Positions 14,396 through 37,250 of a stretch of 64,000 bases of DNA are shown piece by piece; within the stretch, counting starts at the first letter, position 1, and each line of letters starts with the position of its first letter. The notes under the pieces were generated by a model, which was not told where the DNA came from, did no database searches, and saw nothing but the letters and a program-made list of their open reading frames with translations. The stretch comes from Pseudomonadales bacterium (GTDB lineage Bacteria > Pseudomonadota > Gammaproteobacteria > Pseudomonadales > Azotimanducaceae): NCBI GenBank assembly GCA_028281885.1, contig JANQJA010000011.1:129200-193199 (forward strand), given 5' to 3'. The position numbers and the translations under genes are program-made.

Positions 14396-14446
14396 AGGTA
14401 GCGTTGCGTTAATTTGGATTCTAGAGCAAGCGTCTGAGGTCCACCA

Positions 14447-15571: not shown

Positions 15572-15661
15572 TCGGCCTGGCGGACATCCGCTGTACCTGT
15601 TTCCTGCTTCACTATAGGCTTGTCTGCAACGTGTTGTGCAACCTAGTGTTTGGAGTTGACG

Positions 15662-18923: not shown

Positions 18924-19008
18924 GAGCGGGGTCGAGGTGGATCGATGATGATGGCTTATTGTAGTTGAACAGCCGCGGATTTGTTGTGCCATGCGTTAAC
19001 ATGATGCG

Positions 19009-21722: not shown

Positions 21723-23882
21723 TTAATTGATCCGCCAGGCTCTTGCGGTAACGGTAGAGACCACCTCCTCGAATCCCGCGGGAGGATTGCCCAGCAAAAA
21801 CGCCTGAACAACCAGAGAATCGAGTAGTCTCGTATCGACCAGCAGTGTATCGCCGCGATCAACCCGGACAATGTAGGTCAGGTTGCCGCCTGGCCGTATA
21901 CGCCAGCGATAAGTGCGGTTGACCCTGCCCTGCGCATCCGACTCGGCAAAGATGACCTGGGAAACGTTTGCATTGGACACTGCTACCGTGCCTTTGGCCG
22001 GGTTGTCGTTGAACTGTTGGCGAAGAATCCGGCCTTCTGTTGAGGTTCCCTTGAAATAGGTGATCACCGGTGGCCTGGATGTTTCGCCTGTTCGGGGATC
22101 TACCGAACAGAAACGGTAAATCTGTCCCAGTTCGTCGAGCATCTCGTCGTTGAGAAAGAGATAGGTGTCATTCGCTGGATGACTGTCGGGAATTACCTGA
22201 CCGCCAATCAGCGCGTTGATCATCGCGTCATCCTGCCAGCGATAGCCCTGTTGCTCCACGTTCAGCGACAGCCTGCGAAGCAGGTTTCCTGCATCCTGCG
22301 CATCGCCGCAGATTAATGCATGGCTGACGGCGAAGAGCAGTTGTTGGTTGACCATCAGGCCGCCATCGATCACAACGTTGGCATTGCTGTAATAGCGCAG
22401 TGGATAGCCATAATCCCACCAGGTGATGGCCAGATCGCGGGCGCCGGCGACGTCAGCCAGTGCGGCGGCAGCCTCTGCCGTGGGGCTCAAAATGATCGGT
22501 GCCTGCAGCGAACTCCGTGCAGCTGAGACCTGGAGAACGACAACTGCACCGCAGGCGACTAGAGCCGTAGTGCGAATAAACTTCGGAACGAACGCGTTGG
22601 CCAGACAAAAGACCAGATAAGCCAGCCCCAGTGCCAGCCAGGGCACGGCGAAAATGCCGAAGCGGATGCCAAAGGGGAAAGCCAGCAATCCCAGGCCGAT
22701 CATTGGCAAGGCGATGGATAGTTCACGGCGTCTCACCATCATCAGAGCCATACCGATGACGGCGAAGACAAATATGAAGGGCGTGGCGCCCGACAGCATG
22801 CCCATGGTGTCACCGAAATCGGTCACGGACATTTCCGCGACCATCGATTGAACCTCAAGAAAAGAAAAGTTGCCCTGCGAAGCTGGCGTCTGCAGGAAAT
22901 AGAAACGGAATTTGTCGATGATGAATTCGGCGCTGGCGATCGCGATGGCCCCACAGGCAAGGACCCCGATGCCGGCGATCATCCTGGGGTTATTGAATGC
23001 AGTGGGCACTCGATCGACCAGCGGCCACAGCGCGTAGATTGCTATCGGCGCAATAAAACCAGCGATCGGCTGCAACTGGGTAACCAGTGCACCCGCCATC
23101 ATGGCCGGTATTGCGATCGCGCTGTGCTTGCCGCTCAGAAAAATGGCAATGACCCCCGCGATTGGCGTCATGGCGGCGAATACAATCCACATGGATGGAT
23201 ACCACCAGCTGCCAATGCTGATCATCAGGCTGCCAACAAGTCCGATGAGCCGCGAGCCTGTCTGCAGCGCGATGATGGTCCCGCAGGCTGCCGCTGTGGC
23301 CAGGGTGACGTTAAGCATATCGGTATCGAGGGCGCCCGGAATAGTACGGCCAAGATAGACTTCCGCTGTGGCTGCCAGGATTGCGGCGGCGAAACCCAGC
23401 CAGACAGAACCCAGTGCCGAGCCAAGCAGGACGATGGGTATGACGAGCAGGGAGCCAAGCAGGGGAGGTGCGAAAACAAAAATGTCTCCCAGTTCCAGGG
23501 GCAAAGCCAGGGCTGCGACGGCGGTCAGCTGGCTGACCGGGAATGCTGTACGCGATCTTGGATCCTGGCGGTCTTCGAGAATGTCCCGGGTGCCATCAGC
23601 CCAGGCGTAGCCGTCGTGGGTCGTGAGAATGTAACTGTCATCGAAGCGTGTATAGGGAGCATTGCCGTAGTCGATGAACCAGGTGCAACGTGCGCCGAAC
23701 GCCACGATAAAGGCAACGAAAACCAGCAACAGGATCGTCGGACGCGTCGGTTTTTCCAGTGTTATTTGCAGGCGTTCCAGTCGGGCCGGGCTTGAGCGTT
23801 TTTGGTTTCTTGCCAACTCAGGAACTCGTTTCTGTGATGGATTTTGGGGCGGATTGCATTGCGCGCGATATGCGCCGACCAA
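21723..23882 (-). CDS. pglB: PglB/STT3-type oligosaccharyltransferase (N-linked protein glycosylation)
   Basis: Polytopic N-terminal domain with HDGYAWADGTRD (23583-23618), DTDML (23313-23327) and FLEVQ. Then WWDYGYPLRYYSNANVVIDGG (WWDYG = 22407-22421) and a soluble C-terminal domain. No in-frame ATG exists near the start. Candidates are TTG 23882 or TTG 23816, the latter lying 1 nt after the acyltransferase stop. Confidence 0.85.
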   Translation of the reverse strand: MVGAYRAQCNPPQNPSQKRVPELARNQKRSSPARLERLQITLEKPTRPTILLLVFVAFIVAFGARCTWFIDYGNAPYTRFDDSYILTTHDGYAWADGTRDILEDRQDPRSRTAFPVSQLTAVAALALPLELGDIFVFAPPLLGSLLVIPIVLLGSALGSVWLGFAAAILAATAEVYLGRTIPGALDTDMLNVTLATAAACGTIIALQTGSRLIGLVGSLMISIGSWWYPSMWIVFAAMTPIAGVIAIFLSGKHSAIAIPAMMAGALVTQLQPIAGFIAPIAIYALWPLVDRVPTAFNNPRMIAGIGVLACGAIAIASAEFIIDKFRFYFLQTPASQGNFSFLEVQSMVAEMSVTDFGDTMGMLSGATPFIFVFAVIGMALMMVRRRELSIALPMIGLGLLAFPFGIRFGIFAVPWLALGLAYLVFCLANAFVPKFIRTTALVACGAVVVLQVSAARSSLQAPIILSPTAEAAAALADVAGARDLAITWWDYGYPLRYYSNANVVIDGGLMVNQQLLFAVSHALICGDAQDAGNLLRRLSLNVEQQGYRWQDDAMINALIGGQVIPDSHPANDTYLFLNDEMLDELGQIYRFCSVDPRTGETSRPPVITYFKGTSTEGRILRQQFNDNPAKGTVAVSNANVSQVIFAESDAQGRVNRTYRWRIRPGGNLTYIVRVDRGDTLLVDTRLLDSLVVQAFLLGNPPAGFEEVVSTVTARAWRIN

Positions 23883-24960
23883 GGTTCATGGCTGGCAGCT
23901 CGATCACTCGATAGGTGATTGCCGCACATCCGATCGTCGCGATCAAGGCAATCCATGCGGCCAAAAACGATGGTAACGACTCTGCCAGGGTGACAGCGCG
24001 GATTACCGGAATGTGCAGCAGATAGATGCTGAAACTGATCCGCCCGGTGATGGCCAGGGCAGGGTGACCGAGCCAGGTGCGAATGATGTCGGGTCCAAAC
24101 AGTGTGCAGGCCATGACCATACCCCAGATGATCGCGTAGGGTCCGATCCAGCCGTGAAAGTAGTCGAGTCCGATAGCATCGTTCGAGAAAACCAGCTGAG
24201 TCAGGCGTGGTACTGAAATGAGGACCAGCGACATTGACAGGCAAAACAACGCAATGCTGCAGGGTTTGAGCCAACGCCTGAGCAGAGGGGCGTAGTGGTG
24301 GCCGGCGTATGCGAGTCCCATCCCGACCATGAACGTGGGCCAGTAGGCCCAGAGGTTGATGGTATTTCGGGTGTAGGCGCCACCCCAGGGAACAACAAAT
24401 GGCAGCATAAAAAGCAAAATAAAAAGGCCGAGGCCAGCCGAGAGGTTACCGAAGCGCCCGATGAAGACAGCCGCTGCCAGCGCGACCGGCAACAGACCGT
24501 AGAACAGGAATTCAACCGGTATTGCCCAGAAGATGGAGCGGCCTTCGAGCATGGCCAGGTGCCTGAGCGCATCCGACAGGTCCATTCGGATAATACTGAT
24601 CGGCCAGGCGTAGCTGGTGGCAACGACGCAGAACAGCAGAACGGTGGTGTAGAGGGGCAGGATACGCAGGCATCGACGTAAAAGGTAACCGCACCAGTAG
24701 AGGGTGCTCCAGCCGCGGCTTTCCCTCGCCTGAATAGCCTGGTTTGTCAGTAGCCATGCGCTCAGAACGAAAAACAGGTACACGCCGGCCTTGCCGATAC
24801 CCTGAAAATCGGCGCCTGGAATAAGGTCCAGGCCAAAGCCACTGAGATGGCTCAGCAGTACGATAAGTACGGCGATACCGCGAATTCCGTCGAGGGCGGG
24901 CATGTTATTACCAAAACTGGACCTGTCGAAGCATACCCTGAGGTCGTCTGCCGATGCCAC
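23818..24960 (-). CDS. Acyltransferase family 3 (membrane O-acyltransferase)
   Basis: LDGIRGIAVLIVLLSH N-terminal motif and ~10 predicted TM helices. Sits directly upstream of the OST gene on the same strand. Confidence 0.8.
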   Translation of the reverse strand: MASADDLRVCFDRSSFGNNMPALDGIRGIAVLIVLLSHLSGFGLDLIPGADFQGIGKAGVYLFFVLSAWLLTNQAIQARESRGWSTLYWCGYLLRRCLRILPLYTTVLLFCVVATSYAWPISIIRMDLSDALRHLAMLEGRSIFWAIPVEFLFYGLLPVALAAAVFIGRFGNLSAGLGLFILLFMLPFVVPWGGAYTRNTINLWAYWPTFMVGMGLAYAGHHYAPLLRRWLKPCSIALFCLSMSLVLISVPRLTQLVFSNDAIGLDYFHGWIGPYAIIWGMVMACTLFGPDIIRTWLGHPALAITGRISFSIYLLHIPVIRAVTLAESLPSFLAAWIALIATIGCAAITYRVIELPAMNLGRRISRAMQSAPKSITETSS

Positions 24961-25153
24961 GGGATTAGCATCTTTTTCAGCAATATCATGGGGTTAGCGT
25001 GCAATTATCGGATTCTGGCCGATATTTGACCATTAAGTTGCTATAAAATAGGCGATGAAGGTCGCTCGAATTAAGATTTCGCAAAGACCAAAATCGACCC
25101 TTTCTGGTTGGTCAAATAAGCCGATAAGCGGTGTGTAGCGGGACTTTCGGCGC

Positions 25154-25182
25154 TTGACAAGGCGCAGCACGGTTCATAGTAT
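25154..25182 (+). promoter_or_regulatory. Sigma70-type promoter for the secreted-protein gene
   Basis: TTGACA (25154-25159), a 17-nt spacer, then TAGTAT (25177-25182). This predicts a 5' UTR of roughly 80-85 nt before ATG 25272. Confidence 0.55.
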
Positions 25183-25271
25183 GCGTCGTTGAGGGTGCTC
25201 TTGGCTCTCACGGAATTCCTTGGTCGACAAGGTGTTTCTTCGAACCAACAATTAAGTAGGAAACGTTTCTT

Positions 25272-26723
25272 ATGAAAAAACTGTTACTTAGTCTGGCTAT
25301 GGTTGCGACCATGGGGATTTCTGTGGGGGCCAACGCTGTAGTAGCCATTGACGATGGATCCTCTGCGGATGCAATCGCCATTGCGGGCGAGTACACCATC
25401 CCAGCAGGTGGTCTTATCACTAACTCTACAACGAACCAGCTTGATCTTTCGACAGAACTGGGCTTTGGTACTGCGCAAAACGTTTCGCGTGCGATCCGTA
25501 TTGACTGGACTAACGCAACAGTCAACGGAGAGCATACGTTCGAAGTCGACAGTTCTGACTGTACGATGGGTACGCCGGTGACTGGCGTTACCCCGTCAGT
25601 AGGTGGTTCTGGCGATTCGTTCCTGATCTTCGAATTCGATAACACTTGTGGTGAAGACTTGCCGCAGGAAGCTGGGATCTTCGTCAGGGTGGGGAGCCTG
25701 AATGTAAGCGCATTCCCCGTTACCGTTCAGTACCGACTGTTTGAAAACTCATTCGCGGCAACTGACCCGGATAACAACCCAGCAGGTTCAACCGAATCCG
25801 ATACAGTGTTGACATCTTCTGATGCTCTTGAATTTGCGGCTTCAGCAGATTCCGGTACGGAACAGATTGACGTGACTCAGGATTCCACGTTCTTTAACGG
25901 TGGTACTGGTGACGATACAACTCCGTTTGGTAATGCAACCCTGGATCTGGCTTCTCCGGCTCCGTTTATTCCGTCAGGTGGTGATCTGGTACAGCTGACC
26001 TCGGTGAGCCAGGTGGTTGACGATTCAGACAGTGACCTGACGGTAACTGGTGAGTTCGGTGCAGCTGCAAACCTCGGTTGTAACGGTTCTGCCTCATCCA
26101 CTGCAGCCAGTATTCTGGACGGTGCGGATGCTGTTTTCCCGGCCTCTGCCACGGATGATGCGACCTTCAACGGTAACGAGACGTATAGCTGTTTCTTTGA
26201 AGCTGACGGTACTACGATTATTGAAGAAACCACGTTCTCGCTGACTGCGAATCTGGCGGGTCAGACAGGATTTAACGCTTCAGTATTCGGTCCGTTCACT
26301 TTGAGTGAGTTCGACAAGAACGGTTCTTCAGCGATGGTTAACGTCCTGCTGAACAGCTCGCTCTTTGTTAACACGGTTCGTATTCTGAACAAGTCGTCCA
26401 TTGCGGGTGACGTGAGCATCACCATCTATAACGATGGCGGTGACTCGGTGACCTTCCCACTGTCAGTGGTCAATCCATTTGGCCGCAATGACATCATCAC
26501 CTCGTCAAATCTGGGTGCTGGTGAAGCGACACCTGCCATGCGAGTGAGTGACCTGATCACTGCAGCACGTACGGTTGATTCAGGCTTCGGTCAGACCTCA
26601 GCACTGAAGAACAAGTACCGCATTGTAGTTGATGCTGAGTTTGGTTCAGCAGCCAACCCGGTTCGAGTTCAGGTGACGGTTGTTTCTAACGGTTGGGGTG
26701 TCGATATCGACAACATCAACTAA
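25272..26723 (+). CDS. Secreted acidic Asn/Ser/Thr/Asp/Gly-rich protein of unknown function (candidate glycoprotein)
   Basis: Signal peptide MKKLLLSLAMVATMGISVGANA|VV. AGGA lies 10 nt upstream of the ATG. There are 11 N-X-S/T sequons and 4 Cys. Its own promoter and a strong terminator make it monocistronic. Confidence 0.8.
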   Translation: MKKLLLSLAMVATMGISVGANAVVAIDDGSSADAIAIAGEYTIPAGGLITNSTTNQLDLSTELGFGTAQNVSRAIRIDWTNATVNGEHTFEVDSSDCTMGTPVTGVTPSVGGSGDSFLIFEFDNTCGEDLPQEAGIFVRVGSLNVSAFPVTVQYRLFENSFAATDPDNNPAGSTESDTVLTSSDALEFAASADSGTEQIDVTQDSTFFNGGTGDDTTPFGNATLDLASPAPFIPSGGDLVQLTSVSQVVDDSDSDLTVTGEFGAAANLGCNGSASSTAASILDGADAVFPASATDDATFNGNETYSCFFEADGTTIIEETTFSLTANLAGQTGFNASVFGPFTLSEFDKNGSSAMVNVLLNSSLFVNTVRILNKSSIAGDVSITIYNDGGDSVTFPLSVVNPFGRNDIITSSNLGAGEATPAMRVSDLITAARTVDSGFGQTSALKNKYRIVVDAEFGSAANPVRVQVTVVSNGWGVDIDNIN

Positions 26724-26748
26724 GATGATTTAGACATCTGAAGACAAG

Positions 26749-26777
26749 AAAGCCCCTGCTCGCAGGGGCTTTTTTTT
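26749..26777 (+). terminator. Rho-independent terminator
   Basis: Stem agcccctg (26751-26758) / caggggct (26763-26770), loop ctcg, followed by seven T (26771-26777). It is preceded by an A-rich tract, so it may act in both directions. Confidence 0.85.
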
Positions 26778-27117: not shown

Positions 27118-29163
27118 TTACTCGGGCTGGATCAGTGCTTCTCTCAGCTGATCGGATATTCGCTGCGCATCTGACTCGTCCTTCAACACATAGGCCGCCA
27201 CCATCACAAGCAGTTCAGTACTGCTCCCGGTGGCCGACTCGGATTTGAACGCCTTGCCCAATAGCGGGATGCGGCCCAGCAACGGGATACCCTGTTCGCC
27301 CTTGCTCTGGGTATTGGAGATCAGACCACCGAGTACGATCGAACCCCCGTCCCGCAGGGTTAGCGAGGTATTGACGGATCGATTGAACACAGTGGGCAGA
27401 AAGGTATCACCGGAGCCAGTGTCCTGGGTTTCCGCGAGCGTCTGTTGAATCTCGATCTCGACCAGTCCGCTGGCCTGGACAATGGGTTTCACACTGAGAG
27501 TGACGCCCGTGCGGCGGTATTGGAACTGCTGCAGCACATTGGTATTTCCATCGGACTGGAAATCGCCCTGCGTCGTTGACGTCAAAACCGGTATCTCATT
27601 GCCCACTTCGATAGTGGCCTCTTCGCCACTTTTGACCATGAGTTTCGGTGATGAGCGGATCACTGCGCGATTTGAATCGTAAAACGCATTAATGACTGCC
27701 CGGGTCTGCCCCGCACTGTTGAGCGTGTAGGTAAAGCCACGCCCACCCAGGCCCAGCCCGCCGAGCGTTCCCAGTGTACCTGACAGATCATCAGCGGTTC
27801 CTTTGGCCAGCCATTCGACGCCGGTGCCTTCTGAATCGTTCAGCGTGACTTCCGCTAGCAGGACTTCCAGCAGTACGGACGGGACTGTCTTGTCCAGCTT
27901 CTGGATGATCTCAAGTAGTTCCATCCATTCGCTGCCGCGGCCTCGATAGATCAGCACGTTTCGCTGTTCATCCACGACCAGGCTGCCATCACCGACCTGA
28001 CTGTTCACTGCATCCGTTGACTGGTCCTCTGACCCCTGACTTCGCATTGAAGTTCCGTTGCCGCTGTATAGACGGCTCACCAGCGAAGCCAGGTCTTCGG
28101 CGCTGGTATTTTGCACTTCGTAGGTAAAGATGCCGGAGTCGATCTGGCGCTGGTAATCCCGGTCCAGGCGCGTTGCCCAGGACTGTACGTTATTCAAGGC
28201 GACTTTGTCGTTTGCCAGAACAACCAGCGCTTCCAGCTCTGGCATTGGAACCAGTGTAATGGTGCCCGGCAGACCACTGGGGCGACTGACGGCATAACCG
28301 GACGCAGACAGCAGGTCTGTCAGTCCTTTTTCCAACGCCGGGATTTCGATAAAGGCGGGTCGAATCAGGATCGAGTTCTTGCCCTTTAACAAGGGCTGAT
28401 CGAAGTAGCGAATTGCGTCAACCGCGTCAGCCACTTCTGCAGCGGGCCCGCGGAGCAGTATTGCATTTCGTGTGTTGTCCTGGGTCATGGTGACGCGTTG
28501 CCCCTTGATCAGGCCGTCCACGATACTGGTGATCTGGGAGGTTCGAACCACGTTTAGCTCGACTACCTGAAACACCGGCCGGTGGCTTGAGGGCACTTCG
28601 GGCATGGCTTCGCCTGTAATCAGCAGCGGCCGCTGATCGCCGGACACCGAACCTGACATATTGAATTGCCAGATGTTGGCCACCTGTTCGAGCGTCACAC
28701 CATAATTGGACAGGACCGTTCGCGCGGTTCGAAACAGTTCTTTGGGGGGCAACGGATCAGTCAGCCTGAGCGTCACCAGATCTGTCCGGTTCCTGAGTGC
28801 TGGTGCAAGCGTGTAGGAGAGATTCAGTTTTTCTCCGAAGATTTCGTTGATAAAGACAGGCAATGGCAGTTCGTTGACGCTGAGTTCGATCGGTGGCCCC
28901 TTCAGCTCGGGAACCTCGCTTGAGCTGCTAACTGACCGAGGTGCGCCGGTTGCCATGACTGGGCCGGGTTCTATTTCGATCGAGGTCTGCCCCCGATCAA
29001 CTGCCGCTTGTTCCGTGCTCTCGGCCCGGCCTGTACCGGTTTCCAATCGTTGACTGCCAAATAGTGAGCTGCGGTCAAGTGGGGTGCCAACGCATCCCCC
29101 CAGTGCGACGGTGCTTGAAATAGCGACGGCGAGTGCCCGTTTCTTGAAGGTCGGATTATTCAT
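27118..29163 (-). CDS. gspD: Type II secretion system secretin GspD (lipoprotein-type)
   Basis: Secretin C-domain motifs (VTLSVKPIV..., GGLISN..., GIPLLGRIPLLGKAFKS). N0/N1-like N-terminal repeats. Last gene of the gsp operon. Confidence 0.85.
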   Translation of the reverse strand: MNNPTFKKRALAVAISSTVALGGCVGTPLDRSSLFGSQRLETGTGRAESTEQAAVDRGQTSIEIEPGPVMATGAPRSVSSSSEVPELKGPPIELSVNELPLPVFINEIFGEKLNLSYTLAPALRNRTDLVTLRLTDPLPPKELFRTARTVLSNYGVTLEQVANIWQFNMSGSVSGDQRPLLITGEAMPEVPSSHRPVFQVVELNVVRTSQITSIVDGLIKGQRVTMTQDNTRNAILLRGPAAEVADAVDAIRYFDQPLLKGKNSILIRPAFIEIPALEKGLTDLLSASGYAVSRPSGLPGTITLVPMPELEALVVLANDKVALNNVQSWATRLDRDYQRQIDSGIFTYEVQNTSAEDLASLVSRLYSGNGTSMRSQGSEDQSTDAVNSQVGDGSLVVDEQRNVLIYRGRGSEWMELLEIIQKLDKTVPSVLLEVLLAEVTLNDSEGTGVEWLAKGTADDLSGTLGTLGGLGLGGRGFTYTLNSAGQTRAVINAFYDSNRAVIRSSPKLMVKSGEEATIEVGNEIPVLTSTTQGDFQSDGNTNVLQQFQYRRTGVTLSVKPIVQASGLVEIEIQQTLAETQDTGSGDTFLPTVFNRSVNTSLTLRDGGSIVLGGLISNTQSKGEQGIPLLGRIPLLGKAFKSESATGSSTELLVMVAAYVLKDESDAQRISDQLREALIQPE
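29092..29163 (-). other. Lipoprotein signal peptide/lipobox of GspD
   Basis: MNNPTFKKRALAVAISSTVALGG|C gives an L-G-G-C lipobox with Cys24. Confidence 0.6.
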
Positions 29164-29170
29164 ATCTGAT

Positions 29171-29713
29171 CTACTGTGTCAGTTGACTCATGTTGGCAGT
29201 TAAATCTGGCCTGGGGAACAGCTCAAGCCAGCGTGATTCCTGATGGGCGTTCTTGAGCAGCACGCGGTTACCTTCGATGCGTTTCAGGATCACAGCATCA
29301 GGAAGATGGGTGCCTGTTGTTGCTGAAAGGATCTCGATGCCATCTGATCCACGATCCGCTAGCAGGGCTTCGACCGGCGAGCCGCGAACGTTGATGATGG
29401 CGACGAGATGAAAACGATCGAGTCCCGAAGGAAGCGCCGGCTTCACGATGACAGGTTCCGGTTTGGACGGCCGTTCTTCGACCTGAACCGGTGGTGCGGG
29501 TGCTCTTGACGGTGCCGAGAAGTAACTTTTCTCCATGATCTGATTTAGCGCGGGTTCTGTCGTTTCAAGACCAATAAATGCCTGCTGGCTGTCACCCAGT
29601 ATCGTGTTGGTGTCGTTAAATCCCGAACCGCGGTATCCCGGCGCTGCCAGCCACCAGCCCAGCACGAGGATAGTGCTACCAAGGATCAGTGCGACTTTCT
29701 GGCGCAGCGTCAT
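29171..29713 (-). CDS. T2SS inner-membrane component, GspC/XpsN-like
   Basis: N-terminal TM helix (VALILGSTILVLGWWLAAP), a Pro-rich linker and a small C-terminal beta domain. Its position between gspM and gspD matches xps-type clusters. The assignment rests on position and architecture only. Confidence 0.45.
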   Translation of the reverse strand: MTLRQKVALILGSTILVLGWWLAAPGYRGSGFNDTNTILGDSQQAFIGLETTEPALNQIMEKSYFSAPSRAPAPPVQVEERPSKPEPVIVKPALPSGLDRFHLVAIINVRGSPVEALLADRGSDGIEILSATTGTHLPDAVILKRIEGNRVLLKNAHQESRWLELFPRPDLTANMSQLTQ

Positions 29714-30300
29714 TGGTCGTTACTCTCAAGACCGGTCAATGGTGTATTCACGTCAATCACCATAAAGACCCCTTTTCGGGTGCCGACGCGAATGTCGATG
29801 GTGTCAATGATCATTAACGGTTGATAGGACTCGAGCCTGGCGAGCCAGTCCCAGGGGACATTGACGCCGTCTTCCAATGCAGCCGTGATCTGACCTGTCA
29901 TCGTCCAGAGTTCTCTCGAAATCGGCTGCGGTTCGCCGAATTCGACCCTTCGGATCTCGACAGGGTCGATGGTATTGGTGCTCAGGTTGTCGATCGCTTC
30001 CCTGATCACAGCTTTGGCGAGCCCCCCGGTATCAACCGTCCAGGTCTGTTCCAGCAGGGCCTGGTGTTGAGACTCCACCACAGAGGCTTGCTTTGACCAG
30101 AAGGTATCGTCCTGTAAAGATCGCAGGTTCTCAAGCGCTGCTGTTTCACGCTGCCAGGCGATCTGTTTCAGGGTTAGTTCGTCGTCCAGCCACAAAGCAG
30201 CATAGAGCAGCAGAATCGCGCCGATCGCCCAGGTCCCCAGGCGCAATAATCCACTGCTCGCCCACTGCTCGCGCAGTTCAAGTTGTAATCGCTCAATCAT
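29710..30300 (-). CDS. gspM: T2SS protein GspM-like
   Basis: 196 aa with a single N-terminal TM helix (LLRLGTWAIGAILLLYAALWL). Overlaps gspL and the next gene by 8 and 4 nt. The assignment rests mainly on position and architecture. Confidence 0.55.
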   Translation of the reverse strand: MIERLQLELREQWASSGLLRLGTWAIGAILLLYAALWLDDELTLKQIAWQRETAALENLRSLQDDTFWSKQASVVESQHQALLEQTWTVDTGGLAKAVIREAIDNLSTNTIDPVEIRRVEFGEPQPISRELWTMTGQITAALEDGVNVPWDWLARLESYQPLMIIDTIDIRVGTRKGVFMVIDVNTPLTGLESNDQ

Positions 30301-31411
30301 CAGCGCTGCCTGGGGTGTCGTTCGTTGCGACGTTCAGATTGACAATGGCCAGGTGCTGATTCGTCGGCGTCTCCGCCTGAACGTTACTTAGTGCGGGCAA
30401 CTCCTCAAGGGAGCGGACGATGGTCGCCGCATTGATACCGATCGGCTGTTTATGCCACATCAGGGTGAGCTGGCCGCCCCGGTAGGACCATTGGCGCAGC
30501 ATGGTGTCATCCAGTTGCAGCGTATCTCCGATATCCCGTGCCAGTTCGAGGTGGGAGGGCTGCCTCATCGAGGTCAGTGCCCGGTTAAACTGGCTTAACA
30601 GGCGAACCTGATCGCGCTTTGCCAGCACGCTTTGAACTTCTGCCTTGATCTCCTGCTGTGACCGTTTTAGCGCATAGACCTCCCAGCTGGCACGCAGGTT
30701 AGCGACAAGAAAGATGGCAACGACGACAGCCAGCGCGGCACAGGTCATGGGCAGGACCCGGGACTCCAGCAGGCTGGTGGATGCCACAAGAGGTTCGCCG
30801 CGGGGCTGGCTGTCCTTGTCAATAGAGGGGCGGAGCGTTGGTTCAAGCGGGGCGGTGATACTGGCCTGCTGGCGACCCAGCCAGGCTCGGGCCTCGTCTG
30901 GGGAGATAGGACGGACTTCCCGTCGCTCGAACAAGCCAAGCGTCGGGTGCTGGTACTGAAGCAGGAACAAGCCTGACTCGTCATCGCAGACATAGCGGTA
31001 TTGGCCGTCAGCTAGCACAGGCCACATTGCGGTTTCAGGAACCAGGGTCACGTCACCCAGACTTTCGTGAATCTGCTGTTCGAGCGTCCTGGGCCAATAC
31101 CAGACGAGGGCGCGCTCACCATCGCGGACATACCAACCGTTGGCATCCTTGTAGGGGGCGCTTGCTTCCAGCTCGAGGGCAATGGATTCGCGCCATTGGC
31201 TGCGTGGCACTCCCTTCAGGTCGATGCGGGCGAACAGCAGCGCCTGCCGGGGCAGGGCGCAGGCGCCAAGCGGCAGCGATGGCATCGCGCCGATGGGCAG
31301 GGCGTCGTTACCCGTCCAGCGAAAGCTCGGACGGGAAATACGCTCGATAGTTGGGCCAGCTAGTTGCCGGACGCGCCTCACCATCTGATCGAGAGATTCC
31401 ATCAGGGCCAT
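30293..31411 (-). CDS. gspL: T2SS protein GspL-like
   Basis: A ~220-aa cytoplasmic domain, one TM helix (LPMTCAALAVVVAIFLVANL) and a ~125-aa periplasmic domain. ATG 31411 has AGGAA 9 nt upstream but overlaps the gspK 3' end by 104 nt. An alternative start is ATG 31285. Confidence 0.55.
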   Translation of the reverse strand: MALMESLDQMVRRVRQLAGPTIERISRPSFRWTGNDALPIGAMPSLPLGACALPRQALLFARIDLKGVPRSQWRESIALELEASAPYKDANGWYVRDGERALVWYWPRTLEQQIHESLGDVTLVPETAMWPVLADGQYRYVCDDESGLFLLQYQHPTLGLFERREVRPISPDEARAWLGRQQASITAPLEPTLRPSIDKDSQPRGEPLVASTSLLESRVLPMTCAALAVVVAIFLVANLRASWEVYALKRSQQEIKAEVQSVLAKRDQVRLLSQFNRALTSMRQPSHLELARDIGDTLQLDDTMLRQWSYRGGQLTLMWHKQPIGINAATIVRSLEELPALSNVQAETPTNQHLAIVNLNVATNDTPGSADD

Positions 31412-32399
31412 GGGTTGATTCCTGGAGCTTTGTGAATGGAAGATCGACGCGGTGATCGTATTCGATCACCCACGGTTCTTCCCCCGAGGAAGTAAATGTT
31501 ACGTTGATCCAGCGTGCTTGTCGCCCGTCCGCTCCCAACATGATTCGAACCGGGCCGAGCGGAAAGTATTGGGTGGACTCCGAGAAAGGAACAATCATAC
31601 CGGTCAGGTTCTGCACGGTATCGGGGCCGGTCAGGTTGTATCGCTGCCGGGCGGAGACGAATCGCGACGCCTGCTGTTCAGACCAGCCAAGCGCCGCCTG
31701 GAGCCACAGTCTGGTTGCCGTATTGAGCTGTACTGAACCGCCACGCAACGTGTGTGAGTTGGTGATCAGGTCCTGCAGCGATGGTCCCAGCTCGTCAGCA
31801 ATCGGCAGATTATTGAGTTCGTGAGGAGATACCATATAGCGATTGGCCGGGGCGGGCAGCGAGAGCGAACGATAGTCGGTATCTTCTGCACCGTTAATGG
31901 ACCTGAAATCATCGAGGTCCTGGTAGTCGGTCACCTGGCTCATGAGACGCGCACCCGCTTCGGCGGAGAGCCCCAGTGTGTGAGTCATCGGTCGCCATTC
32001 TTCCGCAAACTCAGAAACCAGAGAGAAGGTCGACAGGGTATCCTGCAAGGCGAAGGTGACATCGCCAATTCCATCGTACGGTGTACTGTCGAACCGCAAC
32101 GACGGGCTGATATCCACCTGGTCTTCAAATCCAGACAGAGGATCCAGTTCCATCTCGTTGTCGTTCGGCGTCAGGTCGGCACCTGCTGCGGTTCGGGGCA
32201 GGCCGGACAGCAGGAACAGCAGCGTCTGCTCGGTGGCCAGCATGTTGCGTTCCCGCTCGGAGACGAGACGCATTCGATAGGTCTGGTCGATCGTGGCATT
32301 GATCTGCGCGATGATCGTGCCGGCAATGATGGTCATCGCCGCCAGCGTCCACAGGACGACAGCGAGGATGAAGCCGGATTCACGATGCTGCTCCTTCAA
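31308..32399 (-). CDS. gspK: T2SS minor pseudopilin GspK
   Basis: N-terminus ESGFILAVVLWTLAAMTIIAGT is a prepilin-like helix lacking Glu+5, as in GspK. In-frame TTG 32399 is preceded by GAGGAG and overlaps the gspJ stop (TTGA). The longer ORF-track N-terminus is Arg/Pro-rich and implausible. Confidence 0.7.
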   Translation of the reverse strand: MKEQHRESGFILAVVLWTLAAMTIIAGTIIAQINATIDQTYRMRLVSERERNMLATEQTLLFLLSGLPRTAAGADLTPNDNEMELDPLSGFEDQVDISPSLRFDSTPYDGIGDVTFALQDTLSTFSLVSEFAEEWRPMTHTLGLSAEAGARLMSQVTDYQDLDDFRSINGAEDTDYRSLSLPAPANRYMVSPHELNNLPIADELGPSLQDLITNSHTLRGGSVQLNTATRLWLQAALGWSEQQASRFVSARQRYNLTGPDTVQNLTGMIVPFSESTQYFPLGPVRIMLGADGRQARWINVTFTSSGEEPWVIEYDHRVDLPFTKLQESTHGPDGISRSDGEARPATSWPNYRAYFPSELSLDG

Positions 32400-33067
32400 A
32401 ATCCGATCTCCTCTCGAACGTCGGGCATGCCCACCGGTCGTTGCCGGAGGTTGGCAAAGCCGAATACGGTTCGATGGCTGTCTTCGATCCGGATCGCTTT
32501 TGGCATCGACAGCGGCAGTTGACGTCCATAGACGTCGTCGCCTGGCAGAACCGTCGGGTGTTCCCAGCGACTCACCCATTTGCCCTCATCGTCCTGGTAG
32601 CTGAAACGCGCATCGGCAGGCAAATCCAGCGACGACAAGGATGTCGTGGCAGGCGCTTCTGGACGACCTTCACGGGCAACGAGGGTCGCATCGCCGGAAC
32701 CCGGCATCAGCTCCCAGCGGATCCAGGTTCGTGTTCCCGGCCGCGAATGAATACCGGCGAATGTATAGCCTTCGAAGGCTGTCGAGTTGCCGGTCAGGCA
32801 GTGGCTGGCATCGGCGCAGCCGATCAGGGAGACGAGAGAATCCTCGAACCAGAGCGCATCCCGCACCTGGACATCGAGGCCAGCGGAGATACGGGTCACC
32901 CGCTCATAAAGCCCCAGGGCGATGCCCAGTCCCTGAACGACGAGAGTGATCAGCAGTGTACCGATCACCATGGCGGCGAGCAGTTCCATCAGTGTCATTC
33001 CCGATTCAGAATTGAGGCGTCGGCGCATATTGAAGGCTCTCCACCTTACGGGTGACATATCGATCAA
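32396..33067 (-). CDS. gspJ: T2SS minor pseudopilin GspJ
   Basis: Prepilin-type N-terminus SESG|MTLMELLAAMVIGTLLITL. The start may be ATG 33028 (MRRRLNSESGMTLMEL). Confidence 0.7.
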   Translation of the reverse strand: MIDMSPVRWRAFNMRRRLNSESGMTLMELLAAMVIGTLLITLVVQGLGIALGLYERVTRISAGLDVQVRDALWFEDSLVSLIGCADASHCLTGNSTAFEGYTFAGIHSRPGTRTWIRWELMPGSGDATLVAREGRPEAPATTSLSSLDLPADARFSYQDDEGKWVSRWEHPTVLPGDDVYGRQLPLSMPKAIRIEDSHRTVFGFANLRQRPVGMPDVREEIGF

Positions 33068-33470
33068 TCAGTCTTGTGTCTTCAAGGATGTTGACGTCAA
33101 CGTTGTACAGGGCGATCAGGTGAATGCCCTGCTGGCCGACCGGGCTTCGCGTGGTCGCTGCCCGCATCCGGTCAAAGGTGGCATTGACCTGGTAGTCCTG
33201 GCCGTTCCGGGTGATGCTGAATTGCGCCGTGTGCTGCTCAGCCAGCTCCGGAATCTCGATGTGCCTGATCCAGGCAAGGACATCTGGTTGAATCGCAGCG
33301 GCCATTGCATGTGCTTCGGCCCTGGTGAGCCCCTGCAGCCCGGTATTGATCAGCGCAAAGAGGGCGCTACCGGCACCTGCGACCAGCACAATGGCAACCA
33401 GCGCCTCCAGCAGTGCAAAGCCGCCGAACCGCTTCCTGTTCTGGTGGGTCAGGTGCGCTGGGGCTGGCAT
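33006..33470 (-). CDS. gspI: T2SS minor pseudopilin GspI
   Basis: Prepilin-type N-terminus KRFGG|FALLEALVAIVLVAG. Size and position fit GspI. Confidence 0.7.
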   Translation of the reverse strand: MPAPAHLTHQNRKRFGGFALLEALVAIVLVAGAGSALFALINTGLQGLTRAEAHAMAAAIQPDVLAWIRHIEIPELAEQHTAQFSITRNGQDYQVNATFDRMRAATTRSPVGQQGIHLIALYNVDVNILEDTRLIDRYVTRKVESLQYAPTPQF

Positions 33471-33865
33471 CGTGGTGCCTCAAGTTGAATGGTAAAGGGC
33501 GTCTGATTGGCAAATTGCCAGCGGAGCAGTCCGCCGGTGCAGGCGCCGTTGGCGCGCCAGGTAACAGGTTCCTGTACCCATACTTTTAAAGACTGGAAAT
33601 GCTCAGGCAGCGGTTCCGGGGATTTACTTAGAATCCGGGTCGCTGGTTTGAATCCTTCAGTCCGGTTGATGTTGAAACTCTCGATGTCTTCCATCGTTCG
33701 GACCGGTAACGCCCGCAGGTAGACGATAACGCTGTTCTCATGCTGTTCTTCATCCAGTGAATCCACCAGCCGGACCAGGGACGGCATAGCGACACTCGCG
33801 CCCAGTCCCAGGATTACCAGGACGACAATCAGTTCCAGCAGAGTAAAACCGGTCATGTGTTTCAT
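33449..33865 (-). CDS. gspH: T2SS minor pseudopilin GspH
   Basis: MKHMTG|FTLLELIVVLVILG prepilin N-terminus. ATGA overlap with gspG. Confidence 0.7.
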   Translation of the reverse strand: MKHMTGFTLLELIVVLVILGLGASVAMPSLVRLVDSLDEEQHENSVIVYLRALPVRTMEDIESFNINRTEGFKPATRILSKSPEPLPEHFQSLKVWVQEPVTWRANGACTGGLLRWQFANQTPFTIQLEAPRCQPQRT

Positions 33866-34314
33866 CTTTGGTCGGGCAGATAGCCCACGTCTCCATCCAG
33901 CAAATCACCCCCTTGCTGACCGTCAGCGCCGTAGGAATACAGTACAAATCCCTGTGAATGGGACTGGCTGGGTCGGTAGATGTAGGGATTTCGCCAGGGG
34001 TCGAGAGGAAGTTCCCCATCGAGGTAGGGGCCCTGCCAGAAGGCTCGTTCGCGTTCGCTGGCGGGCGGGTTGTTCAGTGCGATGAGTCCCTCCGCTTCGG
34101 TCGGGAAGCGGCCCATATCAAGCCGGTAAGTCAGCAAAGCGGACTTGATCATCTGGATCTGGGTTTCCGCCGTCTGAATCTTCGCCGTGTCGGCCTTGCC
34201 GAACAGACGTGGGCCTACCAGGCCGGCCAGCAGTCCCAGAATCACGAGTACGACAAGGAGTTCTATCAGGGTGAAGCCGTATGTTTTTTGAATCATGTGG
34301 TTGCGGTATTTCAT
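33862..34314 (-). CDS. gspG: T2SS major pseudopilin GspG
   Basis: KTYG|FTLIELLVVLVILGLLAGLVGPR followed by GRFPTEAEGL ... DPWRNPYIY ... YSYGADGQQGG. These are classic GspG blocks. Confidence 0.9.
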   Translation of the reverse strand: MKYRNHMIQKTYGFTLIELLVVLVILGLLAGLVGPRLFGKADTAKIQTAETQIQMIKSALLTYRLDMGRFPTEAEGLIALNNPPASERERAFWQGPYLDGELPLDPWRNPYIYRPSQSHSQGFVLYSYGADGQQGGDLLDGDVGYLPDQR

Positions 34315-34333
34315 TTCAATTCCGGGTAAGAGA

Positions 34334-35563
34334 TTAGATGACGATGTCGTTGGCGCTGGTAATGGCCAGTATCACGCCCATGATAATGATACCGATGACG
34401 CCGCCGATCAGCAGGATCGCGGCGGGTTCGATCAGGGTCAGGAACCGGGTCATGCGGTTTCGGCCCGAGGTGTCATGCAGTTCTGCCAGCGCGGACAATA
34501 ACTGCGCGACTTCCCCCGACTTTTCCCCGGCTCGCAGCAGGTTGAACCCCGTTTCTGTGATCACGGCATTGTCCTTGAGCGCGGTCGACAAGGGTACGCC
34601 GGACTTCACCTGCGAAGCGGCGCGGTTCAGTCGGCGTCGCCGACTGGGTAGCTGGACACTGGATTCCGCCAGTTCAAGCGCTTTGAGGATCGGTACCCGG
34701 TGACGAGTCAGCGCGGCCATGATCGATGCCCAGCGTGCTGTTTCGGCTTCGACGATCCACTCGCCCACCACGGGAATCCTTTGCAGCGCGTCCGCGACTC
34801 TCAATCGAACGCCTGGCATGGCTGCCACGCGGACGAGAACGATGGCCGCGGCCGCCCCGCAGCCCAGCACCCACCAAAGGTGGGCGTTGACCCATTTGCC
34901 TGTGACGAGGACAGACCAGGCCAGTAGCGGCAGGTCGGCACTCCGGTCAAGCAGGTTCTCAAACTTGGGTACGACGAAGGTAAATACGAGCAGTACCGCC
35001 GCGATACCGGAGAAAACCAGGACCGCCGGGTAGATCAGCGCGTTCTGCATCTCGTCCCTGATCTTTTTTTCGTAGCTCAGCTGATCCACCGCGGTCTGCA
35101 GGCTTCTTCCCATTTCACCGGTGAGTTCGCCCGCCTGGACCAACTGGATCACATAGTCGGGCAGATCCACCGACGACTCCGTGAGGGCCTGGCTAAGGGA
35201 GTTACCCTGACGCAGTTGCGTCGCCCAGTTTTCGATGAGGGCCTGCAGACTTGCCTCTCGATCGCCGCCACTTAACGAATCCAGCGCGTCCTTCAGATTG
35301 ACGCCGGAACGCAGCAGGGTTGCCAGCTCTGTCAGGGTCAGTAACAAGGCATCGCGGCTGACCCTGCCGGATCGAGCCGTTGCCTGGCGTGAGTCAGCTT
35401 CGTGCAAGCGGGTAACCCTGAGTCCTTGTCGGGCGAGTTGTTCAAGGGCTTCCCTGCGATCCATGGCCTGGAGATCTGCTTCCAGTTTTCTGCCATTCGG
35501 GTCGATGGCGCGGTATCGAAAGTTCACGCCGGTACTCTCATGCTGGCACACCTGCTTCATCAC
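34334..35563 (-). CDS. gspF: T2SS inner-membrane platform protein GspF
   Basis: About 400 aa with two GspF-type repeats and three TM segments. FRYRAIDPNGRK start. The C-terminus EPAAILLIGGVIGIIIMGVILAI is typical. The true start may be GTG 35527. Confidence 0.88.
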   Translation of the reverse strand: MMKQVCQHESTGVNFRYRAIDPNGRKLEADLQAMDRREALEQLARQGLRVTRLHEADSRQATARSGRVSRDALLLTLTELATLLRSGVNLKDALDSLSGGDREASLQALIENWATQLRQGNSLSQALTESSVDLPDYVIQLVQAGELTGEMGRSLQTAVDQLSYEKKIRDEMQNALIYPAVLVFSGIAAVLLVFTFVVPKFENLLDRSADLPLLAWSVLVTGKWVNAHLWWVLGCGAAAAIVLVRVAAMPGVRLRVADALQRIPVVGEWIVEAETARWASIMAALTRHRVPILKALELAESSVQLPSRRRRLNRAASQVKSGVPLSTALKDNAVITETGFNLLRAGEKSGEVAQLLSALAELHDTSGRNRMTRFLTLIEPAAILLIGGVIGIIIMGVILAITSANDIVI

Positions 35564-37250
35564 TGACCTGCGTGCCCGCTACACGCAATACCTCGGAAAT
35601 TGTCGTTTCACCCCTGGCAGCCTTGATCAGCCCATCCTGTAACAGGGTTCGATAGCCCTGGGCTTCTGCCCACTGCCGCAAATCATTGATCTCGGCATTC
35701 TCGGCGACAAGGTTCTGCAGGTCTTCCCCGGCAGGAATGATCTCGTAGATACCAAGTCGGCCCCGGTATCCGGTACCGTGGCACCGTTCGCAGCCCTGAA
35801 CGTCGACGAACCGGGGTTCGGTGACCCAATCTCCGGCCGCAGGTCGCCAGAGTGAGTCCGGCGGTGAGGCGGGTGTGGCGCAATGGGTACAGGCCCTTCG
35901 AACCAGCCGCTGGGCCTGCACCGCCTTGATCGGAGCCGCGACCAAATACGGTTCGACACCCATATCGATCAGCCTGGTAAAGGCCGACAGGGCGTCGTTG
36001 GTGTGTACTGTGGACAGCACCAGGTGCCCGGTCAGCGCAGACTGGATGGCAATCTCGGCGGTCTCAAGGTCGCGGATCTCACCAATCATGATGATGTCGG
36101 GGTCCTGGCGCAGGATGGCGCGCAGTGCCCGGGCAAAGGTGTAGCCGATCTCGGCATTGGCCTGGATCTGGGTCACTCCCTGGACCTGGACTTCGACCGG
36201 GTCCTCGACGGTGATGATCTTCTGGCGTCCGTCGACCAGTTCCGAAAGACCACTGTAGAGCGTTGTAGACTTGCCCGAGCCAGTGGGGCCTGTCACCAGC
36301 ACGATGCCGTTGGACACCTTGAGCATGCTCCGCATCAGCTTCAGGTGATCCGGCTCCATGCCCAGTGTGTCCAGGGACATGGACTCACGGTGCTTGGGAA
36401 GCAGTCGCAGCACGACAGATTCGCCGAATGCACAGGGCGCTGTGGACACGCGGATGTCCATCTCCCGGCCGCCCAGTCTGGCAGTGATTCGGCCGTCCTG
36501 GGGCAGCCGGGACTCGGCGATATCCATACCACTGATCAACTTGATTCGGGACGCGACGGCGGGGAAACGGTTGATCGACTGGGTCATCTGGGAGTGCAGC
36601 ACGCCGTCAACCCGGTATCGGATGACAAACAGTTCCTCGTCCGGGTCGATATGCACGTCTGACGCACCCGCGTTAGCGGCCCGGGTCAGGATATTGTTGA
36701 CGAGTTCAATCACCGGGGCCTCCTCGGCGAGTTCCAGCAAACTCTGGTTGGAATCGGTGGAGAGGAGCCGGGTGACGGCGATCTCCTGCTTGATGAACCC
36801 GGTCATCCGTTCGATTTCGTAGCTGGAAGCCAGTGCCCACGCCAGCCTGAATCCGGCAGGAACCAGCGTAGTTTCCAGAACTTCCCGCAGTTCATCGCGG
36901 TCGAATTGCGATGACACCGTCCAGAGGCACTGCGGATCTGATGGATCCCGCCAGATGATGGTGTCGTGGTCGATCAGCCAGTCGGTTGAGAGGGGGAGTT
37001 CTCGCATGGTCTCGAACAACTCGAAATCATCGATGGCGGTGACTTCCTGACCAAGGATCGGGTACCCCCATTGCCGTGACAGCGCCTGGATGATCATGTC
37101 CTCGCTGGCCGCGCCCGAGCGAACCAGCAGGTGGCCCAGCCGGCCGCCGATGCGGGACTGTAGTTCGAGGGCCTGCTGAATGTCCGTCTCGGAGACGGTG
37201 CCGAGTTCCACCAGCCATTCGCCCAGCGGTTTCCAGGTGCTGTTAGTCAT
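35538..37250 (-). CDS. gspE: T2SS ATPase GspE with N-terminal MshEN-type domain
   Basis: Walker A GPTGSGKST, Asp and His boxes, and the tetracysteine motif CTHC...CERCHGTGY. Confidence 0.92.
   Translation of the reverse strand: MTNSTWKPLGEWLVELGTVSETDIQQALELQSRIGGRLGHLLVRSGAASEDMIIQALSRQWGYPILGQEVTAIDDFELFETMRELPLSTDWLIDHDTIIWRDPSDPQCLWTVSSQFDRDELREVLETTLVPAGFRLAWALASSYEIERMTGFIKQEIAVTRLLSTDSNQSLLELAEEAPVIELVNNILTRAANAGASDVHIDPDEELFVIRYRVDGVLHSQMTQSINRFPAVASRIKLISGMDIAESRLPQDGRITARLGGREMDIRVSTAPCAFGESVVLRLLPKHRESMSLDTLGMEPDHLKLMRSMLKVSNGIVLVTGPTGSGKSTTLYSGLSELVDGRQKIITVEDPVEVQVQGVTQIQANAEIGYTFARALRAILRQDPDIIMIGEIRDLETAEIAIQSALTGHLVLSTVHTNDALSAFTRLIDMGVEPYLVAAPIKAVQAQRLVRRACTHCATPASPPDSLWRPAAGDWVTEPRFVDVQGCERCHGTGYRGRLGIYEIIPAGEDLQNLVAENAEINDLRQWAEAQGYRTLLQDGLIKAARGETTISEVLRVAGTQVSDEAGVPA
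37071..37229 (-). other. Tandem MshEN-type (c-di-GMP-binding) motif in GspE residues 8-60
   Basis: The region reads PLGEWLVELGTVSETDIQQALELQ, spacer SRIGG, then RLGHLLVRSGAASEDMIIQALSRQ. Two 24-residue repeats fit RLGxx(L/V/I)(L/V/I)xxG(L/V/I)(L/V/I)xxxxLxxxLxxQ, separated by 5 residues. Confidence 0.6.

Follow-up and report, generated by a model that had tools for sequence, protein, structure and literature searches.

Slr4 is an S-layer protein of marine Gammaproteobacteria that was first described in Pseudoalteromonas tunicata, where it is also a major component of the biofilm matrix (PMC7821379). The slr4 gene is reported to lie beside genes for a type II secretion system (T2SS) (PMC7821379, PMC11094555), and the authors who described Slr4 proposed that a dedicated T2SS exports the S-layer. 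Aeromonas vapA is cited in PMC10765051 as a further S-layer gene linked to a T2SS. Here, we examined a 64,000 nt stretch of DNA from a member of the Pseudomonadales (assembly GCA_028281885.1, contig JANQJA010000011.1, positions 129,200 to 193,199), referred to below as the window, and found at positions 25272–26723 a gene in the same T2SS arrangement, which probably encodes an Slr4-like S-layer subunit with a T2SS of its own. On its other side, the gene is flanked by one for a PglB/STT3-type oligosaccharyltransferase (OST). The original prediction, made from the letters of the window, had described a strongly expressed, exported protein rich in N-X(not P)-S/T sequons, and hence a candidate N-glycoprotein beside an OST that would have to be of the relaxed-sequon kind. 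Its reading of the expression signals, the export, the OST and the need for a relaxed sequon stands; it missed the Slr4 identity and the T2SS link, and its argument from the sequons proved weak.

The gene, its signals and its immediate neighbours are the following, in window coordinates.

25154..25182, + strand: sigma-70-type promoter (TTGACA, 17-nt spacer, TAGTAT), with 10 of 12 consensus matches
25189..25271, + strand: 5' untranslated region (UTR) of ~83 nt, with small hairpins, unusually conserved
25272..25337, + strand: predicted Sec signal peptide, residues 1–22 (from the sequence and conservation of the A-x-A motif)
25272..26723, + strand: coding sequence (CDS) of the predicted Slr4-like S-layer protein precursor, 483 aa
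26749..26777, + strand: intrinsic terminator, a 10-bp G+C-rich stem with a 4-nt loop (26749–26772) followed by a T run to ~26777
27118..37250, − strand: T2SS cluster, convergent with the S-layer gene (Pfam/NCBIfam)
21723..23882, − strand: PglB/STT3-type OST (Pfam STT3 and STT3-PglB_core)
23818..24960, − strand: membrane protein of the Acyltransferase_3 family, encoded by the gene that opens the divergent OST operon

Slr4 family membership and the linked T2SS

A word-indexed protein search with the 483 aa target returned the target itself, an orthologue with 62% identity and a relative with 25% identity that carries a weak precomputed Slr4 label. When these three sequences were used to seed an exhaustive HMMER search, 389 cluster representatives were found at E <= 1e-3 and 238 at E <= 1e-10, nearly all of them 450–500 aa long and matched end to end. 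The Pfam model PF19526 ('S-layer protein Slr4') matches 11 of the 81 aligned family members that were scanned, and the family therefore now extends to sequences that the current model misses. Two members of the acidic subfamily, P0015 (38.5 bits) and P0019 (41.9 bits), exceed the PF19526 gathering score of 25, and the target is related to both, with BLASTP E values of 5e-38 for P0015 (over residues 1–459) and 4e-18 for P0019. For comparison with Slr4 of P. tunicata (EAR28894), the sequence was read from the supplement to Ali et al. 2020 (PMC7821379), as text produced by optical character recognition (OCR). With this OCR-derived sequence, which may contain errors, the 81-sequence family profile gave a HMMER score of 24.8 bits (conditional E = 5.8e-10) and an hhalign probability of 90%, with E = 1.6e-6 over 199 columns. 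The Slr4 stretches IDVKGDRQQF, VVTGDFSW, KLNGS and RHTN....GDITV pair with conserved family stretches in the profile alignment.

The linkage to a T2SS is shared across the family. A locus scan with a 10-sequence subfamily alignment recovered four genome loci, along with 15 metagenome contigs, most of them short. At each of the four loci, namely those of a Pseudomonadales metagenome-assembled genome (MAG), Azorhizophilus paspali, Glaciecola siphonariae and Bowmanella yangjiangensis (L005–L008), T2SS genes adjoin the family gene, and they do so likewise on metagenome contig L011. The cluster in the window comprises genes for the GspD secretin (27118–29163), GspK, minor pseudopilins, GspG, GspF and GspE (35538–37250), together with three small or unassigned single-pass membrane proteins that are possible equivalents of GspC, L, M and N. 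The scores of GspD, GspE and GspF do not reach the NCBIfam equivalog cut-offs, a sign of a divergent paralogue. The convergent gspD, which the original prediction had placed correctly, is on this gene-order evidence not incidental but part of a T2SS cluster that accompanies the family. A separate observation concerns GspE (35538–37250, − strand), which has an N-terminal MshE-type cyclic-di-GMP-binding motif (NF053729, E = 6e-16, residues 8–60); from this motif, export of the S-layer may be controlled by cyclic-di-GMP.

The precursor begins with MKKLLLSLAMVATMGISVGANA, followed by VV, and Sec cleavage is predicted between A-N-A and V, after Ala22. The two alanines of the cleavage motif, A20 and A22, are kept in 66 and 79 of the 81 family members, respectively, in agreement with the signal peptide and the cleavage site first proposed. 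The mature protein is 461 aa and 47.4 kDa with a pI of 4.05, and is as acidic as had been noted (59 D+E against 16 K+R). Ser, Ala, Thr, Gly, Val and Asp are abundant in it, and Lys, Arg, His and Met are scarce. An AlphaFold2 model built with the 81-sequence family alignment (pLDDT 88.5, pTM 0.80) is nearly all beta-strand; with a 3-sequence alignment, pLDDT was 41, and a confident model was obtained only with the larger alignment. A PDB sequence search with the target returned nothing meaningful.

Several observations weigh against the S-layer assignment. Neither the target nor its two closest relatives match PF19526 or any other Pfam family, even at E <= 10, and the 10-sequence subfamily profile alone fails to detect P. 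tunicata Slr4 (hhalign E = 0.22). Membership is therefore transitive and runs through intermediates. When the model was compared with the PDB using Foldseek, the top 50 hits listed were low-TM matches (~0.2) to multi-domain proteins, including integrin ectodomains, Gram-positive pilins and adhesins, and no solved S-layer protein was among them; the structure search therefore does not decide function. S-layer formation has been shown experimentally for only one member of the whole family, and a lattice here would follow from family membership only; lattice, abundance and surface location all lie beyond what a sequence can reveal. With these points taken into account, the sequence comparisons still make the protein a divergent Slr4 relative that connects to the wider family by way of intermediate sequences.

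The NpdA family was also considered and was rejected: the family profile gave no reportable match to NpdA WP_011797163 with all filters off, and the phmmer scores were noise.

Expression signals and codon usage

The gene is monocistronic. It is separated by 312 bp from the divergent acyltransferase_3, PglB and methyltransferase genes and is convergent with the secretin gene, and both the spacing and the convergence agree with the original prediction (open reading frame coordinates and Pfam). The near-consensus promoter with its TAGTAT hexamer and the terminator were also present as claimed, and both promoter hexamers are unchanged in the orthologous MAG locus. Transcription is predicted to start near 25189, and a Shine-Dalgarno sequence, AGGA, is found at 25258–25261, 10 nt ahead of the ATG.

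The G+C content of the gene is 0.515 and that of its third codon positions (GC3) is 0.514, compared with a GC3 of ~0.61–0.75 in neighbouring genes. Codon choice is strongly biased, with GGT, AAC, CGT, ACT, CTG and CCG making up 70%, 82%, 40%, 30%, 66% and 65% of their respective amino acids, and ATA, CTA and AGA absent. Four-fold sites are shifted from C to T (T = 0.35, compared with 0.15 in the neighbours), whereas two-fold sites hold or strengthen the preference for C (0.60, compared with 0.55). This combination, with rare codons avoided, rules out horizontal transfer as the cause of the low G+C, and differs from the uniform AT shift of the low-GC glycan island at 41–62 kb. The bias noted in the original prediction is thus real, and is of the translational-selection type that is typical of high expression. 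The lower G+C of the gene is due to codon selection and not to foreign origin.

Comparison with the MAG locus revealed an unusual pattern of conservation at the 5' end of the gene. The block containing the promoter and UTR (25151–25271) is 87.6% identical to the corresponding part of L005, the CDS is 63.5% identical, and sequence further upstream is 52% identical. When the comparison was extended from the −35 hexamer through the signal-peptide codons (25151–25337, aligned to 9878–10060 in L005), nucleotide identity was 88–98%; it was ~63% in the rest of the CDS, and the flanking DNA could not be aligned. The signal-peptide codons (25272–25337) are 95.5% identical, and the conservation includes synonymous sites; this suggests that the RNA or DNA itself is constrained, through regulation or a recombination cassette. 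From these alignments, the leader is clearly under constraint, and mRNA stability, translational control and a 5' cassette conserved by recombination are candidate reasons that the data do not separate. The original prediction had pointed to a hairpin just upstream of the ribosome-binding site (RBS). The hairpin exists, but the leader fold (−25.6 kcal/mol) is not statistically unusual (z = −1.76), and folding energy gives no support for a discrete regulatory structure. Rfam scans of the leader and of the whole window returned no match. The highly conserved promoter and leader could serve as a strong expression element.

A similar contrast was seen in other members of the family. The ~100-nt leaders of the Glaciecola (L007, 9591–9990) and Bowmanella (L008, 9597–9996) genes are 77% identical, while most of the CDS is ~50–55% identical. 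Conserved leaders may be a general trait of this S-layer family.

PglB, the sequons and the flanking glycan genes

The neighbouring OST is genuine, as had been claimed. In addition to the STT3 and STT3-PglB_core domains, it aligns to Campylobacter lari PglB (ClPglB; 3RCE) with E = 1.3e-47 and has the WWDYGYP motif, the acidic motifs DGYA and DTDML and a Glu aligned to E319 of ClPglB. The C-terminal PF18527 domain was not detected by Pfam. At the position of ClPglB R331, the proposed binder of the acidic −2 side chain, the aligned residue is Met, with high posterior confidence. Substituting the equivalent Arg together with its upstream neighbour relaxes the specificity of C. jejuni PglB, and naturally relaxed PglBs exist, some of which keep that Arg (PMC4894442). 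As the R331 position is Met here and naturally relaxed PglBs are known, the D/E-X-N-X-S/T rule may not apply, and we agree with the original prediction that a relaxed-sequon OST would be needed. The longest PglB open reading frame uses a TTG start, in overlap with the acyltransferase gene; the annotated length is 697 aa.

A search of 5.8 billion sequences found one close PglB homologue, which is 50% identical and is located in the same MAG as the S-layer orthologue. The matches that follow are only 25–27% identical, and one that was looked up sits in a classic pgl-type locus. By these matches, PglB appears to belong to a nearly orphan, deep-branching lineage. The MAG locus keeps the order GT2, sulfotransferase-GT1, methyltransferase, PglB, S-layer gene, T2SS, and PglB adjoins the S-layer gene divergently in both genomes that have it, though the two PglBs have diverged so far. 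The acyltransferase_3 gene was not found at the equivalent position in L005. In the family loci of the three other genomes (L006–L008), there is no PglB within ~10 kb. On the metagenome contigs L010–L012, family members with 31–33% identity to the target have as neighbours homologues of the window's GT2 (61% identity), sulfotransferase, methyltransferase and GspD (63–69%), and no PglB was seen on these short contigs. The association of the S-layer gene with glycan-modifying genes is therefore wider than that with PglB. With so few loci, mostly short contigs, the frequency of PglB linkage is poorly sampled.

The protein contains exactly 11 sequons (N51, N70, N81, N144, N221, N271, N302, N335, N350, N361 and N373), at the positions originally listed. 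Only one, D-K-N350-G-S, has an acidic −2 residue, as had been stated, and the other ten do not fit D/E-X-N-X-S/T. At 22.8 per 1000 aa, the sequon density is the highest in the window, but composition alone predicts 6.8. Shuffles of the mature protein gave 6.65 ± 2.2, and 4.9% of them contained at least 11 (P = 0.049), so that the count is marginally above chance and comes close to what composition would give, the outcome that the original prediction had named as speaking against it. Within the family alignment, the target (z = 1.96) ranks 15th of 81, and the family mean is +0.84. Across the 81 members there are 580 forward sequons, compared with 439 reversed S/T-x-N motifs and 443 expected, and 87 of the excess fall at just two positions, N350 and N373. 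N350 lies in a K-N-G-S/T stretch where Asn is found in 60 members, the following Gly in 79 and a sequon in 43, and N373, in N-x-S, is Asn in 79 and part of a sequon in 44. The 62% identical orthologue keeps five of the 11 sequons (N51, N81, N271, N350 and N373), and Asn residues in sequons are not significantly better conserved in it than others (6/11 and 6/22; P = 0.15). N51, N81 and N271 are sequons in the orthologue, yet in only 4, 14 and 2 of the 81 family members. Composition and two positions conserved in the family account for most of the sequon richness, which does not amount to evidence of glycosylation. Of the proposed sequon-rich N-glycoprotein beside an OST, the predicted Sec export and the genuine adjacent PglB hold, and the sequon excess is marginal.

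Further genes in the window bear on glycan synthesis.

17952-18992, − strand: GT2 (Pfam), conserved in L005
19009-21039, + strand: sulfotransferase-GT1 fusion (Pfam), conserved in L005
21044-21871, − strand: SAM methyltransferase (Pfam), conserved in L005
37336-38355, − strand: DPMS/GtrB-like GT2, directly upstream of gspE
38348-40213, − strand: 621-aa protein with ~10 predicted membrane spans and no Pfam match
40234-41187, − strand: NAD-dependent sugar epimerase, upstream of gspE on the same strand
41299-62290: low-GC glycan-biosynthesis island, G+C ~44–51% compared with 55–61% elsewhere

The 621-aa membrane protein is possibly a GT-C-type glycosyltransferase. Together with the DPMS/GtrB-like GT2, it suggests a second, polyprenyl-phosphate-sugar-dependent periplasmic glycosylation step, the genes for which may be co-transcribed with the T2SS. 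The low-GC island includes several GT2 and GT4 genes, a WecA/MraY-type initiating transferase (44867–45940) and genes for a DegT aminotransferase, a nucleotidyltransferase and a YdjC-like protein. It also encodes a 1519-aa multidomain protein (46938–51497) with MptE-like, GT4-like, FkbM methyltransferase and sulfotransferase domains, and a further sulfotransferase (55799–56929). With the sulfotransferase-GT1 fusion at 19009–21039, the window thus holds three sulfotransferase domains, a hint of a sulfated glycan.

On the far side of the GT2 gene, a Memo-AMMECR1 fusion protein is encoded divergently from a radical-SAM enzyme (13025–15571), and the MAG has this pair in the equivalent place next to the island (L001, L005). 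The gene that follows, for a 765-aa protein without a Pfam match (15650–17947), is 67% identical in L005. A 791-aa DUF5916 protein (5526–7901, − strand; E = 1.7e-42) is encoded next to genes of fatty-acid and aldehyde metabolism, with no apparent relation to the island.

Combined, these features suggest the following pathway. The near-consensus promoter, conserved leader, good RBS, optimised codons and strong terminator are present, and would yield an abundant monocistronic mRNA. The precursor would cross the inner membrane via Sec, be cleaved after Ala22 and, according to the AlphaFold2 model, fold in the periplasm into a largely all-beta structure. Conserved linkage and the Slr4 and Aeromonas precedents suggest that the T2SS encoded downstream then carries it across the outer membrane, and family membership that it would self-assemble into a lattice on the cell surface. 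While in the periplasm, the protein would be exposed to the adjacent PglB, and an N-linked glycan might be added at N-X-S/T with no need for an acidic −2 residue. Such a glycan, possibly methylated, sulfated or acylated, would be assembled by the products of the flanking genes for a glycosyltransferase, a sulfotransferase, a methyltransferase and an acyltransferase.

N-glycosylation stays a reasonable hypothesis because of the conserved gene linkage and not because of sequon counts. That the adjacent, deep-branching PglB modifies this S-layer protein is a live hypothesis which, judged by the conserved adjacency, we would put somewhat short of even. The fuller version is a shade more doubtful; in it, the subunit would be N-glycosylated before T2SS export by a relaxed-sequon gammaproteobacterial PglB that is dedicated to, or has co-evolved with, an Slr4-type protein, and the glycan might be sulfated, methylated or acylated. 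A more demanding proposal, that this is a heavily N-glycosylated secreted substrate of a relaxed-specificity OST and that most of the 11 sequons are selected sites, seems unlikely. The catalytic motif and aligned acidic residues of PglB, the divergent adjacency in both known genomes and the absence of the −2-reading Arg would all fit it, as would the topology, in which Sec delivers the protein to the periplasm where PglB acts and the T2SS exports it afterwards. The sequons themselves divide: the density is the highest in the window and three sites are shared with the orthologue though rare in the family, but the excess over shuffled sequences is marginal and unremarkable among relatives, N350 and N373 are conserved family-wide, the orthologue has lost six of the 11, sequon asparagines are conserved not significantly better than others, and only one site suits the classic rule. 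T2SS-linked family genes also occur in L006–L008 with no PglB nearby.

The S-layer protein might instead be unglycosylated, a reading to which we give a chance only slightly below even. PglB and the glycan genes would then serve other periplasmic or outer-membrane proteins, or a lipopolysaccharide or glycan that anchors the S-layer, and their adjacency would reflect an envelope gene island. The region from 17.9 to 62 kb can indeed be viewed as one large envelope/glycan island, with its WecA/MraY-type transferase, many glycosyltransferases, sulfotransferases, epimerases/dehydratases and aminotransferase, and specific O-polysaccharides serve as anchors for the S-layers of Caulobacter and Aeromonas. 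The weak sequon statistics point the same way, as do the metagenome relatives with GT2, sulfotransferase and methyltransferase genes beside the S-layer gene and no PglB on the contig. An island of this kind fits less well with the position of PglB, which is directly beside the S-layer gene in both genomes and has a single close homologue in the sequences searched, or with the fact that an S-layer protein, probably among the most abundant to transit the periplasm, would present 11 potential acceptor sites. That the product is not an S-layer subunit at all, but a soluble exoprotein or biofilm-matrix adhesin secreted by the T2SS without forming a crystalline lattice, is improbable. The best Foldseek matches listed do include pilins and surface adhesins, Slr4 itself belongs to the biofilm matrix, and a lattice has been imaged for one family member only. 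Against this stand the full-length homology to members that match the Pfam Slr4 model, the linkage to a T2SS cluster, as for slr4 and vapA, and the expression signals, codon bias, size, acidity and composition, all of which match S-layer subunits.

Comparison with described systems

Among S-layer proteins with an adjacent secretion system, the NpdA family of Beta- and Gammaproteobacteria resembles the target in its ~50 kDa size, signal peptide and adjacent 12-gene gsp cluster, and is present in related marine Gammaproteobacteria, among them Congregibacter and Haliea (PMC10765051). There is no detectable sequence relationship between NpdA and the target family. According to citations in PMC7821379 and PMC10765051, VapA/AhsA of Aeromonas is a Sec-dependent S-layer subunit whose gene lies beside a secretin/T2SS set said to be dedicated to its export; here the likeness is one of gene arrangement.

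Slr4 of P. tunicata D2 (EAR28894; PF19526) is the closest described relative. Both proteins have a Sec signal peptide with predicted cleavage near residue 22–23 and a gammaproteobacterial host, are of comparable size (483 aa here and 579 aa for Slr4) and are encoded next to a T2SS (GspD, E, F, G and K in both; PMC7821379). The target is ~100 aa shorter, leaves the first ~170 residues of Slr4 unmatched and is strongly acidic. PglB, sulfotransferase, methyltransferase and acyltransferase genes adjoin the target gene; the word-stem 'glycos' is absent from the paper on Slr4 (PMC7821379), and 'glycosyl' from the AnnoView paper on the slr4 neighbourhood. Considered as an S-layer gene alone, the gene described here adds a new, divergent member to a family recognised only recently.

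The OST resembles the PglB systems of Campylobacter and Desulfovibrio in being a single-subunit STT3/PglB protein with WWDYG and acidic residues, in being accompanied by a cluster of glycan-assembly genes, and in being placed to act on Sec-exported periplasmic proteins. It differs from PglBs of classic pgl loci in its low identity to them (25–27%), the undetected PF18527 domain and the Met at ClPglB R331. The flanking genes, which include those for sulfotransferases, a methyltransferase and acyltransferase_3, also differ from those of one classic-type locus, where Bac_transf, hexapeptide-repeat, DegT aminotransferase, dehydratase and GT4 genes were found.

What is notable in the window is therefore an architecture, in which the S-layer gene lies between a T2SS cluster and a near-orphan PglB with glycan-modifying genes and which is conserved in the only related genome. 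To our knowledge, the characterised bacterial PglBs and OST-type N-glycosylation come only from Epsilon- and Deltaproteobacteria, while the host here is a gammaproteobacterium, and Aeromonas S-layer proteins are not known to be N-glycosylated or linked to an OST. We also know of no bacterial S-layer glycans described so far other than O-linked ones, N-linked S-layer glycosylation being known to us only in Archaea. If PglB does act on the S-layer protein, OST-type N-glycosylation would be placed in the Gammaproteobacteria. A natural PglB without the −2-reading Arg would also interest glycoengineers, who seek OSTs of relaxed specificity (PMC4894442, PMC12229607).

If PglB does modify the subunit, the same principle would apply as in the AglB-dependent S-layers of the archaea Haloferax, Halobacterium and Sulfolobus, in which an STT3-family OST decorates the S-layer protein at the outer surface of the cytoplasmic membrane. 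The Halobacterium S-layer is known to carry sulfated N-glycans, and the island described here contains several sulfotransferase genes. The archaeal systems belong to another domain of life and have an unrelated S-layer protein, and the subunit in the window would have to make an additional crossing of the outer membrane, by the T2SS. If the hypothesis of N-glycosylation holds, the locus would be the first case of an N-glycosylated S-layer in bacteria, paralleling S-layer glycosylation in Archaea.

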